A stretch of 64,000 bases of DNA, taken from sequence record MK327933.1. One strand, given 5' to 3'. The notes beneath the pieces were generated by a model. It ran no database searches. It was not told the DNA's origin and saw only the letters and a program-made list of their open reading frames with translations. Both the position numbers and the translations under genes were made by a program. This stretch comes from Escherichia phage vB_EcoM_G2285. Positions 410 through 52,874 of the stretch are shown here, piece by piece. The first letter of the stretch is position 1, and each line of letters starts with the position of its first letter.

Positions 410-988
410 TTAATTACCACGGGCTGCATTAGCAACGGCGTAAGCGTACTGAACATTAGCGTCCTTAAACGTACCTTTAGAGGTATCTATTTCTGCCTTA
501 AAGCCGCCTTTAGCCATAACATCTGCAAATTCTTTACGGAAAGCCATTGCATCAAGACCTTTCCATGTTGATTTATGCTTGGCAAATTCAAGACCGGCGT
601 AGTTGACAGCCTTAGCTAATTTATTATCAATAACCCATTTACCTGCTTTAGGCACAAACTTCGGGCCTTTTTGTTTAGAGAACAGTTTTAAATTCCAGCG
701 ACGAAGGTCACTGTCGGCTTTAACAAAAGCTGCATCTAAGTTACTAGCAACAACATCTTCAATATGAGCAAATTTAAGTCCGTCAACTTCAATATTTAGA
801 TCGTTACGCCAGCGAAGTCCTTCCCAAGCGAAGGCTTTAAAATCAGAAGCCTTTGTAGCTAAGTACCGTTCAATAGGAGCAGTTTTAGGGTCAAAGCCGT
901 TTCCGCCACGATAAGTCCACTCGTCCTTATTAATGCCTTGAGCTTTTCCTGCAAAGGCCTCGGCGATAAATTCTTTATATGTTTTCAT
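410..988 (-). CDS. ipIII: internal protein with N-terminal capsid targeting sequence (IPIII-like, 192 aa)
   Basis: ORF track; starts MKTYKEFIAEA (T4 CTS consensus cleaved by gp21 protease); size close to T4 IPIII; SD AAGGAAAC upstream of ATG 988. Confidence 0.65.
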   Translation of the reverse strand: MKTYKEFIAEAFAGKAQGINKDEWTYRGGNGFDPKTAPIERYLATKASDFKAFAWEGLRWRNDLNIEVDGLKFAHIEDVVASNLDAAFVKADSDLRRWNLKLFSKQKGPKFVPKAGKWVIDNKLAKAVNYAGLEFAKHKSTWKGLDAMAFRKEFADVMAKGGFKAEIDTSKGTFKDANVQYAYAVANAARGN

Positions 989-1019
989 TTTTTGTTTCCT
1001 TGTTTGTTTTGATAGAGTA

Positions 1020-1049
1020 ATTATACCATATTAATACTTAAGCGTAAAC
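1020..1049 (-). promoter_or_regulatory. T4 early-type promoter (GTTTAC -35, 18-nt spacer, TATAAT -10) upstream of ipIII-like gene
   Basis: Minus strand reads GTTTACgcttaagtattaatatggTATAAT; plus-strand gtaaac at 1044..1049 and attata at 1020..1025. Confidence 0.5.
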
Positions 1050-1052
1050 AAT

Positions 1053-1313
1053 TTAAGCTTTACCGCCAGAAATAATTCCGAAGTTGTTAAAATCGTATCC
1101 AATATCGTCAACATCTACTTTAGGACTTGCTACAACATAAGCAATTTCACTACGTTTTGCATAGGTGTTGATTTCTTTACCATCGCCACCTAAGAAAGAA
1201 TACCCATTACGCTTTAATGAGCCAAAGTCTTCCGCATCACCAATGAAAGCTTTAACTTTAAATTTGGGGTCTTTGACATCTGCTTCAATGATAAATTCTT
1301 GATACATTTTCAT
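1053..1313 (-). CDS. ipII: internal protein with capsid targeting sequence (IPII-like, 86 aa)
   Basis: ORF track; N-terminus MKMYQEFIIEA matches CTS pattern; ATG confirmed at 1313..1311. Confidence 0.55.
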   Translation of the reverse strand: MKMYQEFIIEADVKDPKFKVKAFIGDAEDFGSLKRNGYSFLGGDGKEINTYAKRSEIAYVVASPKVDVDDIGYDFNNFGIISGGKA

Positions 1314-1321
1314 TTTTTTCC

Positions 1322-1735
1322 TTAGTAAATTGATTTACCATAGTATTTGTACCAAGTCGGACGTTGAGCAATTTTTTCATCTAAGCGTGCTTGACTTATC
1401 GCAATGGACGCTTCGGACGGGACGTAATTATTACGAAATTCTACAGGAATGTCGGAAATATCCTGGACAGTCGTGTCCTTGATTTTGAAACCACGTTTCA
1501 AGCATTCAGCGATTAGCTCGATTTGACGTAAACGTAAAAATTCGAGTTTGTCGTAAAAGAATGTTACGTGACCTGTGCCTAAGATAAATGTTGGAGGGAT
1601 TTTAAAATCCTTTACACGTTTACCGTTTTGAACATGTTTACGGACTGAACCAAATACGCGTGGTAATTCACGATACTCAGCCATAAGATGTTGGTCGGTC
1701 AGTTCAGAAACAAGTGTTAAATTGATACGGGTCAT
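1322..1735 (-). CDS. denV: endonuclease V, pyrimidine dimer DNA glycosylase (DenV)
   Basis: Translation [35 protein letters not shown] nearly identical to T4 endonuclease V; ORF track start at 1747 is a TTG extension, ATG at 1735 with SD GGAGGAAA. Confidence 0.9.
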
Positions 1736-1793
1736 AATTTCCTCCAAGTAGTTGATGAATGTATAGTATCAAAGTCCTTGGAGGAAGTAAACA

Positions 1794-2075
1794 CTATTTT
1801 TCTGAAGCGCCTGAAATATATTTTTCAAGACGTTGTTTCATTAGCGAGCCGTTCTTAGCGATTTCTTCCGGTTTATCGCACATACGCAACAAGGCTTCAA
1901 GCTTAGCGATATTGCTGGTACGTTCAAATTTGCGAGTATCTATCTTACTAGCAAGTTCAGAAATACGTGCTAATAGACTTTCGGCTTCAACCAAAGCTGC
2001 ACCTAGCTTAGTTGCAAATGTGTCAGTAGCTTCGTTAAGAATAGATTCTGATAAAAATTCACTATATGTTTTCAT
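1794..2075 (-). CDS. internal-protein-like protein with CTS ([10 protein letters not shown]), wedged between denV and e
   Basis: ORF track (1794..2090, TTG extension); in-frame ATG at 2075 gives N-terminus [10 protein letters not shown]; ATG overlaps stop of gene e (ATGA). Confidence 0.6.
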
Positions 2076-2560
2076 ATATACGCTTTCCAAGTTCCTGTTT
2101 TAAATGTTGAGATTACGCGTTTCGCGCGATTAGGTGTCTGACGATACCATTTAGATTGGGCTAGATTTACTGCCGCTTCATCCCAACGTTTCTGTTGAAG
2201 AATACGAAGAGAATTAGTAAAACCGGCGACGCCTGCTACACCCATTTGGAAGACCATATTGACCAATGCACATCGACGAACTGCATCTAAAGAATCGTAT
2301 ACCGGTTTAAGTTTAGCATTACCCAAGATTCCGCGAACGGCTTTATCAACGTCTTCATTAAATAGCTTTTCAGCCTCATCAAGGGTAATTGTACCGTTGC
2401 ATTTACGTCCGATCATTCTGTCAAGTTCAGCTTTAGCTACGGCTAAAGACGGGTTCTTTGTTACTAAATGGCCTATGCCAATCGTCCAAAAGCCTTCAGT
2501 GTCTTTGTATAAAGTCGGTCTAAGACCTTCGTCATTACGAAGCATTTCAAATATATTCAT
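2072..2560 (-). CDS. e: endolysin (T4 lysozyme, gene e)
   Basis: Translation [49 protein letters not shown] is clearly T4 lysozyme; ATG at 2560. Confidence 0.95.
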
Positions 2561-2561
2561 A

Positions 2562-2587
2562 ATACCTCCCACGTTTATAGGAGGTAT
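2562..2587 (-). promoter_or_regulatory. hairpin sequestering the SD of gene e with late-promoter-like TATAAACG in the loop
   Basis: Minus strand ATACCTCC-TATAAACGTG-GGAGGTAT then T-ATG; 8-bp perfect stem; the GGAGGT SD sits in the 3' arm. Confidence 0.55.
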
Positions 2588-2594
2588 TTATTAC

Positions 2595-3053
2595 TTATAG
2601 GAGGGTAGTGAGCACCTTATATAATGATTTGCCCATTACATATTCCCATTGAGAAGGTTTAATTAAAGCGAATGCATCAAATTCAGGAATCTGTCGTCCG
2701 TCTGGGAATGTATGATAGGAATTACAAACACTGTTTCTGAATTGCTCGTGCTCTACAGGGATGGTATATAAGAACAGATGAATATTCTTATTGTCTGAGT
2801 AATGATGTTCACCTAGGTCTTTCAGGAAGGCAGGGTCATACTGTGTAAACCCAGTTTCTTCTTCGCATTCACGAATAGCGGCTTCAATAGGAGATTCGCC
2901 AGGTTCGACACGGCCTTTAGGAATATCCCACCGATGAGCTAATGCACCTTTAGGACGAGAACCAGTTACACGGCCCATGAATAATTCTTTATCTTCGGTA
3001 AGGAAAATAATACCGGCTGATAGTTCTTTCACTTTATTTTTCTTACTCATCAT
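2595..3053 (-). CDS. nudE: Nudix hydrolase (NudE, e.1)
   Basis: Nudix box GRVEPGESPIEAAIRECEEETGF in translation; position directly after e as in T4. Confidence 0.85.
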   Translation of the reverse strand: MMSKKNKVKELSAGIIFLTEDKELFMGRVTGSRPKGALAHRWDIPKGRVEPGESPIEAAIRECEEETGFTQYDPAFLKDLGEHHYSDNKNIHLFLYTIPVEHEQFRNSVCNSYHTFPDGRQIPEFDAFALIKPSQWEYVMGKSLYKVLTTLL

Positions 3054-3279
3054 CTCGGTTCCATGATTTGGCCATTAATTCGGACATAAATTCTTCAATG
3101 CGCGTTTCTTTAGATGGACTTTCACTATCAGATATTTGGACCATATAATCAGAAATAGGTCGGAACATATCCAAGTCGCTTTCTAAATCTTCTTTGATTT
3201 TCTCTTCTGACGTTCCTGTATCATAGGAATACAGATAAGAATCACATGATTCTGATTTAATGTAAATTGCTATACTCAT
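3043..3279 (-). CDS. hypothetical small acidic protein
   Basis: ORF track 3043..3294; likely real start ATG 3279 (MSIAIY) preceded by AGGAA. Confidence 0.45.
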   Translation of the reverse strand: MSIAIYIKSESCDSYLYSYDTGTSEEKIKEDLESDLDMFRPISDYMVQISDSESPSKETRIEEFMSELMAKSWNRDDE

Positions 3280-3512
3280 CTCAAATTCCTGCATTCGGTA
3301 ATAAAACGTTCAACTTCATTATTTTTGGCCTTTATCTTGTCTTTACGTTCCTGTAAACTACTTTTAACAAGATTAATAATGATGCCTACAGTACCTCCAC
3401 CAATTATACCGCCAATTATACTTACGATAGTAGATGCTAATAAGATAGCAATAATATCTAGTACGGCAAAGGCACTTACTTTAGTACTAAAAAAACCATA
3501 CCGATGGTACAA
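3276..3512 (-). CDS. small membrane protein with glycine-zipper TM segment and C-terminal ...ERFITECRNLR
   Basis: ORF track; hydrophobic IIGGIIGGGTVGII segment; member of the C-terminal motif family. Confidence 0.5.
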   Translation of the reverse strand: MYHRYGFFSTKVSAFAVLDIIAILLASTIVSIIGGIIGGGTVGIIINLVKSSLQERKDKIKAKNNEVERFITECRNLR

Positions 3513-3675
3513 ATATAATCCATCCTGTTATCCATTGGCACTTATTGAAAAACTTTTCAAGCTCAGCTTGAGTTGTTCGTATTACTTCATCGATAGGTTG
3601 ATATCCATTAATGTATCTGTTCACGATAATACCTGCTGGCTGGTCGATTTTAAATTCTTGGCAAATATGTTTCAC
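3487..3675 (-). CDS. hypothetical protein (62 aa)
   Basis: ORF track only; compact minus-strand gene array. Confidence 0.35.
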   Translation of the reverse strand: MKHICQEFKIDQPAGIIVNRYINGYQPIDEVIRTTQAELEKFFNKCQWITGWIIFVPSVWFF

Positions 3676-3746
3676 TAAGTATGATGGACATCCTGTCCAA
3701 TCTACTGAATAGTATGAAATACCTTCGTTGCCATCAACTATTCATA

Positions 3747-4052
3747 TTATTTTCCTCGACATTCTTTAATGAAATTTTCTAGATTGGTAGATTCAATAGC
3801 TTTTTTACGAGCTTCTGCGTGTTCTTCTTCGGTCAATTTACGTTTATAATTGACCCAGACATTATGGTCGAAACTAGTCGTGGCATATAATAACAAAGCT
3901 CCGACGAATAATAAAAACGGTGATAAGAATACAAAACCAGGAACACCATCCATATCGTAAGCCTTTTGTAATACTGCAACAGAAAGGGCTGCGTAAAAAA
4001 GTGATGCAAATATTGTTAAAAGACCAATTCGGTTGGTTTCGCCTAATTTCAT
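3747..4052 (-). CDS. small membrane protein (2 predicted TM) ending ...NLENFIKECRGK
   Basis: ORF track; SD GAGGAG before ATG 4052; hydrophobic segments; C-terminal motif family. Confidence 0.5.
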   Translation of the reverse strand: MKLGETNRIGLLTIFASLFYAALSVAVLQKAYDMDGVPGFVFLSPFLLFVGALLLYATTSFDHNVWVNYKRKLTEEEHAEARKKAIESTNLENFIKECRGK

Positions 4053-4067
4053 AATATTCTCCTCATG

Positions 4068-4112
4068 TTTAATAGGACTACTATAACATAGTCCTATAAT
4101 TGTGTAAACAGT
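4068..4112 (-). promoter_or_regulatory. PeSL-like cassette: early promoter (GTTTAC -35 / TATAGT -10) with inverted repeat ATAGGACTA..TAGTCCTAT
   Basis: Minus strand GTTTACacaattATAGGACTATGTTATAGTAGTCCTAT, followed by the 18-mer CATGAGGAGAATATTATG also found at 8533..8550. Confidence 0.6.
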
Positions 4113-4121
4113 TTTGTGAAG

Positions 4122-5078
4122 TTATTTGAAAGGTTTTACCATATGGAAATTTTGTTTGAAACGTTTGACGTAATCATCATGTCCTAAACTTTGGTACATA
4201 CTTACTACTTTGCGGTAGTTTTCCCAGGCATACTCACGAAACCAGCCAGAGGTGATGCTTGTACAGACTTTTTCTAATGCCATCATGAAACTGGCTTCAG
4301 GGTTAATTTTAAAGTCATTAGGAATTTGAGAACGTTCTAATGCTAGTACACATGATTCTTCGTATACACCGGCCAATTTGACCATTTCCGGTAATGATTC
4401 GAACTTCTCGCGTGAGGTCATGACTTCAGAACCGTCTTTCATATAAAATGTATACGCTGGACGGTCTGTTAGTGCAATGGCTTCGTGAATAGTATCATGG
4501 TCATATGTATAGATGTCATCTTTAAAGAACGCACTTTTAGAAGTGTCAAGAACCGGGTGAGCATAGTTCAAGGTTTCTTTCTGGCGTTTCAGCATAATTT
4601 CAGTAAGTTCATCGTTCAGTGTAACACCTTTACCACGAAGATACTGAATATGGTTCATAGTCTTTAAAAAGAATGGATTATTTTTCTTGAAACGATGAGA
4701 CATCTTAATTGCAAGGCACATCTCAGGAGTTGCCCAGTAAAACCCGTTCAAACGGTCTTTAGTCAAATTTTTCTTGGCGTATTTTAAAAGGTCATAAGAA
4801 GACGTGAAATCTTCAGGAGTGAGTTCACCGACTAATTCACGGACATTAGTAATTGCCGGAACAATATATGCTTCAAAATGAGTTTCGCGTCCGTTATGGA
4901 AGCATTTGAAAACTTGGACATCAGGGTTATCTTGGTGAACATATACACCCATCATTTGATTTTTGAATGCATTCCAAGAACATTGGTCCGCAATAAAGTC
5001 CCAATCGCTATTTTTGATAGCGCTAGAATCAATAAGACCGTGATAGTGAAGTGCACGAGAACCAATAACTAACATCAT
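4122..5078 (-). CDS. hypothetical protein, 318 aa, possible Pol-beta-superfamily nucleotidyltransferase fold
   Basis: Largest ORF of the hyperplastic region; N-terminus LVIGSRALHYHG...SDWDFIAD resembles the hG[GS]...[DE]h[DE]h NTase motif; not verified by search. Confidence 0.55.
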   Translation of the reverse strand: MMLVIGSRALHYHGLIDSSAIKNSDWDFIADQCSWNAFKNQMMGVYVHQDNPDVQVFKCFHNGRETHFEAYIVPAITNVRELVGELTPEDFTSSYDLLKYAKKNLTKDRLNGFYWATPEMCLAIKMSHRFKKNNPFFLKTMNHIQYLRGKGVTLNDELTEIMLKRQKETLNYAHPVLDTSKSAFFKDDIYTYDHDTIHEAIALTDRPAYTFYMKDGSEVMTSREKFESLPEMVKLAGVYEESCVLALERSQIPNDFKINPEASFMMALEKVCTSITSGWFREYAWENYRKVVSMYQSLGHDDYVKRFKQNFHMVKPFK

Positions 5079-5106
5079 AATATTTTCCTCGGATTAATTC
5101 ATTAAC

Positions 5107-5358
5107 TTAAATTTCACGACATGCGATATTATATTCATCCCAGAGGTCATCATATGAAGCCTCTACCAAAGGAACGATTGTACCGTTTATGTCTTCATTA
5201 TAAGGGCAAATTGTACAGTGCGCATCTTCGAATCGGATGCCTTTGTGTTCAGATTTTTTATAACGCATATCGAATATCTTTGCAAACTTTTCACGAGTAA
5301 TGGTTTTACTAACCAATTTGGTTCCGATACTTTCGTAATAAATCATTGTGGACTCCAT
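5107..5358 (-). CDS. hypothetical protein (83 aa)
   Basis: ORF track; preceded by PeSL-like cassette. Confidence 0.45.
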   Translation of the reverse strand: MESTMIYYESIGTKLVSKTITREKFAKIFDMRYKKSEHKGIRFEDAHCTICPYNEDINGTIVPLVEASYDDLWDEYNIACREI

Positions 5359-5363
5359 TTAAT

Positions 5364-5408
5364 TTGATAGGACTACTATAACATAGCCCTATCTTGTTGT
5401 AAACTGTT
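5364..5408 (-). promoter_or_regulatory. PeSL-like early promoter/stem-loop cassette
   Basis: gataggactactataacatagccctat followed by gtaaac (5399..5404); same architecture as 4068..4112. Confidence 0.55.
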
Positions 5409-5606
5409 TTAGCAAGAATAACTAGATGATACCCAGCCTTGAACAGTGATACTATTGTGGGATAATGAGATCGCGTCCTGGAGATTCAGACCTGCGTTAT
5501 CTTCAATCCATAATGTAACTTCTTCGCGTTCTTCTGTTGCAATTTGGAACAGGTTTTCCAGAGCAGCTACTGCCGTACGTACAGCACAATCTAATTCACG
5601 AGACAT
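5409..5606 (-). CDS. hypothetical protein (65 aa), paralog of 5616..5921 (shared C-terminal WVSSSxxC)
   Basis: ORF track; C-terminus ITVQGWVSSSYSC versus ITEGAWVSSSALC in neighbour. Confidence 0.45.
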   Translation of the reverse strand: MSRELDCAVRTAVAALENLFQIATEEREEVTLWIEDNAGLNLQDAISLSHNSITVQGWVSSSYSC

Positions 5607-5615
5607 ATTGTTTCC

Positions 5616-5921
5616 TTAGCACAACGCAGAAGACGAAACCCAAGCACCTTCAGTAATAACGTAACCATTACCTTCACGCTTAACATCGCCACCATTATTT
5701 TCAATTTCATCTTTCATCCACTGGTATACGATTTCACCCTTAGGATAATAAGTACGACCGCTACCATAATCACCTACAGAAAATGATACGGCATATTGGT
5801 CTGCGATCTTTGTTGCTTCTTCTTCGATACGTTCAGCTTGATTCAGAAGTTTATAAATTGCATCTGAAGCGGATTTGGCATCATTAAACTCTGGTACTTT
5901 AATTTCAATAATCTTACTCAT
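5616..5921 (-). CDS. hypothetical protein (101 aa)
   Basis: ORF track; ATG overlaps stop of upstream gene (AAAATGA). Confidence 0.5.
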   Translation of the reverse strand: MSKIIEIKVPEFNDAKSASDAIYKLLNQAERIEEEATKIADQYAVSFSVGDYGSGRTYYPKGEIVYQWMKDEIENNGGDVKREGNGYVITEGAWVSSSALC

Positions 5922-6277
5922 TTTCTACATTCCTTAATAAAGTTTTCGATTGTTTCATTTTCACGTCTAGCTAAGAGTTCATTATAACTAATCATTTGAG
6001 AAGCGTAAACCTTTTTATTTTTCTTGTTATGGTTTATAAAATCGTAGTAAAAATAGACTACAGTACAAAATGATGCGATGGATGCAAAGGCTTGGGTATA
6101 CCGTAAGTCCTGCCATTGGTCTGTGAATCCACCAGTGTTCCCTATAAATCCTAACACAACGCCATCAATAAGAAATCCAACTAATCCAAAGGCAAATCCC
6201 ATGCCAATACTCATAATAAAAATTAGAATGTTCTCACCAAGAGAAGGCCATATGGTTAAGAGTTGAGGCTTTTGCAT
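5918..6277 (-). CDS. small membrane protein ending ...ETIENFIKECRK
   Basis: ORF track; hydrophobic N-terminal half; SD AAGGAA upstream of ATG 6277. Confidence 0.5.
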   Translation of the reverse strand: MQKPQLLTIWPSLGENILIFIMSIGMGFAFGLVGFLIDGVVLGFIGNTGGFTDQWQDLRYTQAFASIASFCTVVYFYYDFINHNKKNKKVYASQMISYNELLARRENETIENFIKECRK

Positions 6278-6651: not shown

Positions 6652-7243
6652 ATTCTCTACATTCCATAATAAATTGCTCAAGGATTAAATTGTTAGTGAA
6701 ATTAGGACTAACAACCATGGTTTCATAAAGCGCATCAATAGCACTTAAAGCATCAACTCTTTTAAGCAAAGGCTTGCCTTCATACATAGTTTCAGAATCG
6801 ATGATTAACGTAAAGTAATATTTTTTATTATCGACTAGAACTTCTGTATCGATATAAAACATATTAGACCTCAGAAGCTTATCTCTAAAACCATAATAAT
6901 CTTCAGAGCGTTCGCTGATATATTCCCATTCAGTGTTTAAACAACAAACAGACCATGTAGGAGCAACGAAATCAGTGAATCTAATATCATGGTCTGCAAC
7001 TAGTTTAGCAATAGCTCCGATATCATGAATCATAATACCTGGGGCTAATAAAGATTTTCTGCTATGGCCGGCCGTTTTCTCGGTGGTCTCATAAGAAGAC
7101 GACCAGTACCATTTACGTCCAGTTGCAACATATCGTAATGAATCAACTAAAGACGTAGGTGGATTTACCTTATCTCGGAACTCTTCGAACATTGAGTCAA
7201 TATCATTATTTTGGTTTCGCATGTTAACTCCTTTATTATCCAA
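6620..7243 (-). CDS. hypothetical protein (207 aa) with ...LEQFIMECRE near C-terminus
   Basis: ORF track; SD AAGGAG before ATG 7243. Confidence 0.5.
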   Translation of the reverse strand: MDNKGVNMRNQNNDIDSMFEEFRDKVNPPTSLVDSLRYVATGRKWYWSSSYETTEKTAGHSRKSLLAPGIMIHDIGAIAKLVADHDIRFTDFVAPTWSVCCLNTEWEYISERSEDYYGFRDKLLRSNMFYIDTEVLVDNKKYYFTLIIDSETMYEGKPLLKRVDALSAIDALYETMVVSPNFTNNLILEQFIMECREYVKANPVHAN

Positions 7244-52074: not shown

Positions 52075-52121
52075 GTTAACTCCTTTATTGTGTATTTATA
52101 AATAATAGAAAAGGAGTAATT

Positions 52122-52874
52122 ATGGCTAATATAATTCGTTGTAAATTACCGGATGGTGTTCATCGTTTTAAGCCGTTCACCGTGGCGGATTATAGAGACT
52201 TTTTACTAGTTAGAAATGATATCGAACATCGTTCGCCACAAGAACAAAAAGAAATAATTGCCGATCTGATTGATGATTATTTTAACGAATACCCTAAAAC
52301 ATGGCAACCATTTATATTCCTGCAAGTTTTTGCAGGCTCTATAGGCAAAACAAAAGTTCCCGTTATTTTCACTTGCCCTAAATGCTCTAAAGAAAAAACT
52401 GCACCATTTGAGATATATCAAAAAGAACTAGTCGAACCTGAACTTGATGTTGCTGGTATAAAAATACGTTTTTCTTTCCCTGAAAAGTTTTATGACAACA
52501 AAGCATTAATGATAAGTGAAAACATAAAAGAAATATATTATAATGATGAATGGTATCCATGGAATGATTTGACTGAAGAGAACCAAATCCAAGTAATAGA
52601 AGCAATAGACATTGACTCGCTCGAGAAGGTTATTGCTTCTATGAACCCTATTAATTTGACCCTTAGATTAGGTTGTTGTGAACATCATGTTAAAACATAT
52701 ACTGACATCTTAGAGGTTTTTAAATTGTTAGTTAACCCTGATGAGATTTTTACATTCTATCAGATAAACCATTCACTAGTAAAGAGTCAATACACATTGG
52801 ATTCTATTATGCAAATGATTCCTGTTGAACGTGGTATTGCTTTAACATTAGTAGAAAAGGACCATAAAAAATGA
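52122..52874 (+). CDS. 51: baseplate hub assembly catalyst gp51
   Basis: 250 aa; synteny. Confidence 0.85.

Follow-up and report, generated by a model that had tools for sequence, protein, structure and literature searches.

The lysozyme gene e of bacteriophage T4 has been a standard example of translational control by RNA structure since 1986, and the device that precedes it times the endolysin by allowing no lysozyme to be made from early read-through RNA. As recounted in the relevant section of a review (PMC3014915), long early T4 transcripts that run into e form an inhibitory structure, and late transcripts relieve the occlusion (McPheeters et al., 1986, Nucleic Acids Res 14:5813). Fig. 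5A of that review predicts comparable leaders for near relatives among the T4-type phages, every one having a T4-type late promoter where the 5′ strand is encoded, and the legend of the figure names RB69 neither in its exclusion lists nor in its list of phages with a T4-identical leader (Uzan and Miller, 2010, Virol J 7:360; PMC3014915). Hairpins that sequester the ribosome binding site (RBS) and are tied to late promoters are also described in the same section for soc, gene 49, I-TevI and mobE of Aeh1 (PMC3014915). These share the logic of the e leader, in which the Shine-Dalgarno (SD) and/or the AUG is hidden in upstream-initiated RNA and freed in RNA that begins at a late promoter within the structure, but they are analogs with unrelated sequences and not orthologs.

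The window analysed here is a stretch of 64,000 nucleotides from Escherichia phage vB_EcoM_G2285 (MK327933.1), and all positions given below count from its first letter unless another record is named. It is a Mosigvirus (RB69-like) genome, and many genomes of that genus (RB69, JS09, ATK47, moskry and others) match its DNA at 97-99% identity. The junction between nudE and e in this window is very probably the RB69-group ortholog of the translational-occlusion leader of T4 gene e, with the late start most likely made from an abutting box, AATAAATA. The mechanism and its conservation in relatives are already published; the feature is a known T4-type device and matters little beyond annotation, in a type of genome that has been sequenced more than 100 times. 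What is added here is that, across T4-like phages, the hairpin is conserved together with the late box that abuts the anti-SD, and that the loop box of T4 is not conserved. The elements of the locus are as follows.

2072-2560, minus strand: gene e, the soluble lysozyme (endolysin) of 162 aa, with its ATG at 2560-2558.
2561-2588, minus strand: RBS-sequestering hairpin, as in RNA begun upstream, indicated by a 9-nt perfect inverted repeat, by the fold and by conservation.
2565-2569, minus strand: Shine-Dalgarno GGAGG of e, wholly paired as part of the 3′ arm, with 4 nt between it and the ATG.
2572-2579, minus strand: loop 8-mer TATAAACG, at the site of the second late promoter of T4, with two mismatches.
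2580-2584, minus strand: anti-Shine-Dalgarno CCUCC, exactly at −5 to −1 of the predicted late promoter at 2592-2585.
2585-2592, minus strand: candidate late (gp55-type) promoter box AATAAATA, an A(−13) variant of TATAAATA, with its predicted +1 at U2579 (or A2578).
2595-3053, minus strand: nudE (e.1, Nudix hydrolase), co-directional with e and upstream of it, from which read-through RNA would enter e.

The product of the e ORF is 81% identical to that of T4 gene e and matches the PHROG endolysin family (E = 1e-27), and the nudE product matches the PHROG nudix hydrolase family (E = 4e-74). The nudE-e order is that of T4, the nudE stop codon TAA (2597-2595) lies 6 nt ahead of the stem, and all ORFs called around e, from 410 to 6277, share its strand. 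A 50-nt query that spans the leader (2602-2553) is matched at ≥99% identity by 133 deposited phage records.

A mechanical ORF call would start e at the GTG at 2572 (MGGIMNIF...), which lies inside the hairpin loop; this start was rejected, the T4 protein beginning MNIFEML. In the RB69 record AY303349, the e CDS begins 15 nt downstream of the ATG used here, at the second ATG (Met6, MLRNDEG...; RB69 516 versus ATK47 501, and in the window 2545 versus 2560). The start given in AY303349 is probably an annotation error, since ATK47, T4 and the position of the SD all indicate the first ATG (MNIFEML...). At the other end of the gene, the e stop TGA (2074-2072) shares bases with the ATG (2075-2073) of the ORF that follows (2075-1794, minus strand, 93 aa), whose product matches the PHROG family of internal head proteins (E = 1.5e-45). 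As an arrangement of codons, this ATGA overlap suggests that the internal head protein is translationally coupled to the lysozyme.

On the minus strand, the sequence from 2600 to 2551 is ctataagtaa taaatacctc ctataaacgt gggaggtatt atgaatatat, and the part from 2590 to 2558 is TAAATACCTCCTATAAACGTGGGAGGTATTATG. The 5′ arm AAUACCUCC (2588-2580) pairs perfectly with the 3′ arm GGAGGUAUU (2569-2561), one base ahead of the e ATG, and a repeat search returned the two arms as a perfect inverted repeat of 9 nt (2561-2569 and 2580-2588) with the arms 10 nt apart (loop 2579-2570). RNAfold adds the pairs U2579-G2570, A2578-U2571 and U2577-G2572, which lengthens the stem to 12 bp and leaves the tetraloop AAAC (2576-2573). 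The 33-mer has a dG of −16.3 kcal/mol, against a mean of −4.2 for its dinucleotide shuffles (z = −5.7), none of 200 shuffles is as stable, and the hairpin still forms in 81-nt and 150-nt contexts. When the stretch from −40 to +6 was folded at 56 candidate gene starts of the window, the e start region was the most structured of all (−16.3; median −3.8, sd 3.3); each of the three hairpins that follow it in strength is situated upstream of the SD without covering it. A search of 2300-2900 on both strands with the Rfam 15 covariance models gave no match at E ≤ 1.

The first-pass annotation of this DNA had claimed a hairpin with an 8-bp stem here; the hairpin is present and the string quoted for it is exact, but the stem has 9 perfect base pairs, or 12 according to RNAfold. 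The same annotation had placed the SD of e in the 3′ arm, and GGAGG (2569-2565) does lie wholly within it. The comparison that it had proposed, of RNAs with early and with late 5′ ends, likewise speaks for its reading of the fold: the long RNA folds at −16.3 kcal/mol, whereas 5′-truncated RNAs that begin at 2575 or 2572 reach −2.6 kcal/mol and leave the SD unpaired. A model late RNA from the +1 predicted here folds at −1.6 kcal/mol.

In T4 the corresponding junction is TATAAATA-CCTTC-TATAAATA-CTTA-GGAGGTATT-ATG. The locus in the window is like it in the orthologous nudE-e junction, in the arms (AAUACCU(C/U)C and GGAGGUAUU) and in the spacing between SD and AUG, and, as predicted here, in a late box that abuts the anti-SD and a late +1 just 3′ of the anti-SD. 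A candidate late promoter in the 5′-strand region, together with a hairpin over the SD, is also what Uzan and Miller (2010) describe for the relatives (PMC3014915). Unlike in T4, the upstream box is AATAAATA and not the consensus TATAAATA, and the loop box is degenerate (TATAAACG) and 2 nt closer to the SD, whereas the second box of T4 is consensus. The stem is also stronger than that of T4 (−16.3 versus −13.3 kcal/mol), because a C-G pair stands in place of U-G and the loop is closed to a tetraloop. The T4 feature of a second consensus late promoter in the loop was not found in this locus; a consensus loop box is absent from most relatives as well, so it does not define the wider family.

Since a late box spans −13 to −6 (Nolan et al.), the +1 is the sixth base past it. 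The candidate box AATAAATA (2592-2585) extends two bases past the upstream limit (2590) of the earlier annotation and directly adjoins the anti-SD, with CCTCC (2584-2580) as its spacer. With the anti-SD at −5 to −1 of the predicted promoter, CCUCC would be part of early read-through RNA and would be missing from late RNA. The A at −13 is the commonest deviation from the consensus, found in 9 of 50 T4 late promoters, of which only 2 have more than one deviation (Geiduschek and Kassavetis), and position −13 is poorly conserved, being A or T, in most of five T4-like phages that include RB69 (Nolan et al.). Elsewhere in the window, AATAAATA also precedes the orthologs of two genes that are late in T4: it is found 43 nt upstream of the start of the gp15 ortholog (tail sheath stabilizer, ATG 31847, plus strand) and 27 nt upstream of the start of the inh ortholog (prohead protease inhibitor, ATG 48254, minus strand). 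It has nine copies in the window, and six of these are away from gene starts, so the 8-mer alone is weak evidence.

Late promoters are usually A+T-rich at −5 to −1 (Geiduschek and Kassavetis), and the G+C-rich spacer CCTCC counts against the box at e, although the active upstream e promoter of T4 has a similar one, CCTTC. A published HMM scan of RB69 lists 31 late promoters, none of them near e (about 65.2-65.7 kb), so by that model the box at e, with its G+C-rich spacer, is not high-scoring. For T4 itself, the 5′ ends covered in a dRNA-seq preprint (10.1101/2024.04.04.588121) and its supplement include none at gene e. Judged by sequence and position, the working late promoter is probably AATAAATA at 2592-2585 and not the loop box.

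The comparison with relatives bears on both boxes. Loci of e were taken from IMG/VR, anchored on the protein, and from GenBank phages. Their upstream 70 nt comprised 26 distinct leaders, which come from several genera of T4-like phages. Searching IMG/VR for exact matches to the arms yielded 7 loci, which were too few for a census of loops, and the protein-anchored loci were used. In a MAFFT alignment the CCTCC and the CTCC subgroup were offset by one base relative to the structure, so pairs were tallied from the minimum free energy (MFE) fold of each leader, anchored on the SD. A hairpin that contains the SD is found in all 26 leaders, with dG values from −8.5 to −16.6 kcal/mol and z from −2.9 to −8.0 against shuffles, and GG[AG]G is paired in every one. 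The sequence ATAAATA, adjoining the anti-SD, is also invariant in 26 of 26, and ATAAATAC is invariant throughout the alignment. The base before ATAAATA is A in 14 leaders, G in 7 and T in 5; functional data on the G(−13) variant of those 7 leaders were not found. Loop length and loop sequence vary across the set.

In all 26 leaders the SD core pairs with bases located after the box and before the predicted +1, so that the anti-SD would always be in the untranscribed −5 to −1 spacer. Among the changes in the stem are compensatory ones from U-A to C-G in two distinct leaders, and wobbles from C-G to U-G in T4-type leaders and in L026. In the subgroup with a GGTCCT 3′ flank, the AAUA of the box is outside the stem and ATAAATA is still invariant, which argues for a constraint on ATAAATA as promoter rather than as stem.

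Taken together with the T4 system, these results suggest the following course of events. Read-through into e may be inferred from the co-directional block, from a sigma-70-like promoter on the minus strand (4108-4080) and from the lack of a convincing terminator before e, the latter two being results of a simple consensus-pattern scan. Early and middle transcripts would begin upstream, in the co-directional nudE/e.2 block, and run into e. Such read-through RNA would carry both arms, and the hairpin of 9-12 bp (2588-2561) that is computed for it would bury GGAGG, so that, by analogy with T4, no early lysozyme would be made. After replication, gp55-RNA polymerase would use AATAAATA (2592-2585), which abuts the hairpin. 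As the anti-SD CCUCC (2584-2580) fills −5 to −1, the late RNA would start at about U2579/A2578, just 3′ of the anti-SD, would be unable to form the hairpin (computed dG about −2 kcal/mol) and would be translated. If this reading of the upstream box is true, changing AATAAATA to AACAAATA would abolish late e RNA, and changing TATAAACG to TACAAACG, with the stem extension kept, would have little effect.

The T4-like occlusion mechanism had already been put forward in the first-pass annotation, and its core is backed by the orthology with the T4 locus, by the folding of long and truncated RNAs and by the hairpin in the 26 leaders; the late start from the loop box, which was part of that proposal, is probably wrong. 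The 8-mer TATAAACG is in the loop at 2579-2572, as was claimed, and its place is where T4 has its second consensus late promoter. That it works as a late promoter, either by itself or jointly with the upstream box, in the way of the loop TATAAATA of T4, could be argued from near-boxes that some of the relatives have (TATAAACA in L037, TATAAATC in Klebsiella phage 17-11 and, in four leaders, TATCAATA), and variant late promoters are usable in vitro and in vivo (Geiduschek and Kassavetis). It is nevertheless unlikely, because TATAAACG deviates at both −7 and −6, a double deviation of the kind seen in only 2 of the 50 listed T4 late promoters, and because its +1 would be G2566, inside the SD, which would leave a 6-nt leader, GGUAUU, without a usable SD; the T4 loop is 2 nt longer, so that the T4 spacing retains GAGG. 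The loop is also the least conserved part of the leader, with a second box that is perfect in 2 of the 26 (T4-type only), has one mismatch in 6 and has at least two in 18, and eight of the nine copies of TATAAACG in the window are away from gene starts. Degenerate in the clade, the loop 8-mer is probably non-functional or at best a weak remnant. Another reading dispenses with a promoter inside the hairpin altogether and has late lysozyme made from read-through RNA on which the SD is unmasked otherwise, and it may be entertained because neither of the RB69-group boxes is consensus and the scan of RB69 has no late promoter for e. The unmasking may then come from an endonucleolytic cut between the arms, or from ribosomes that terminate at the nudE stop 6 nt upstream, but this reading is quite improbable.

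Several GenBank records label the hairpin as a terminator, and it could be understood as mainly the intrinsic terminator of the nudE early transcription unit. In ATK47, whose 50-nt leader is identical, the stretch that corresponds to window ~2586-2550 (L085 475-511) is labelled ‘putative terminator determined with ARNold’, a terminator feature lies under the match in three other records (WFK, WFbE185 and G2469), and the stem is followed by U-rich sequence, UAUUAUGAAUAUAUUU. The tail of the stem, UAUUAUGAAU, is however without an uninterrupted U tract, so that the G+C-rich stem with a U run directly after it that marks a Rho-independent terminator is not found at this site, and a consensus terminator scan of 1700-4200 did not call the hairpin. 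In the GGTCCT-subgroup leaders the sequence after the stem, GUCCUAUGGAC, is not U-rich, and for T4 the section of the review cited above documents long early transcripts into e (PMC3014915). A terminator would also leave unexplained the invariant ATAAATA that abuts the stem and the SD that is always its 3′ arm. Termination as the main role of the hairpin is thus very improbable, and the automated ‘terminator’ labels are probably wrong. That the inverted repeat arose by chance, in intergenic DNA that is rich in A+T and carries a strong SD, and plays no part in regulation, is hardly credible. The complementarity may be partly incidental, as a GGAGG SD is needed anyway and the late box overlaps four bases of the stem; against chance stand the stability relative to the 200 shuffles, the first rank among the 56 gene starts, the retention of the hairpin in 26 distinct leaders despite variable loops and with compensatory changes, and the T4 structure, which according to the review was shown experimentally (PMC3014915).

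A third near-box, TATAAGTA, lies at 2599-2592 on the minus strand, with one mismatch, and overlaps the nudE stop. It was considered as a promoter and rejected: its +1 at about 2586 keeps the anti-SD, and an RNA begun at 2585 still folds, at −12.7 kcal/mol. Among the relatives compared, this near-box is found only in Mosigvirus leaders.

Outside the e locus, the same cassette is found in the metagenomic viral contig IMGVR_UViG_3300030060_007788 (L089 1813-1841, minus strand), where AATAAATA-CCTCC-GATAA-GGAGG-TATT-ATG precedes an unrelated gene. This gene encodes a product of 98 aa with a hydrophobic segment, for which the only match is a PHROG of unknown function, so the design of box plus anti-SD is reused on another gene.

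Elsewhere in the window, at 52090-52125, a consensus TATAAATA box on one strand (+52097) overlaps another on the opposite strand (−52100), and each is placed 17-18 nt upstream of the SD and ATG of one of two divergent genes (ATG 52122, plus strand, and 52074, minus strand). By its layout this looks like a back-to-back bidirectional pair of late promoters. At ~7262-7220 on the minus strand, upstream of a 200-aa gene that starts at 7222, a G+C-rich terminator-like hairpin, GAGGACUCCGGUCCUC, is directly followed by a second hairpin, CUUUUGGAUAAUAAAGGAG, which pairs part of the SD region; the total dG of −12.8 kcal/mol ranks third among the 56 gene starts.
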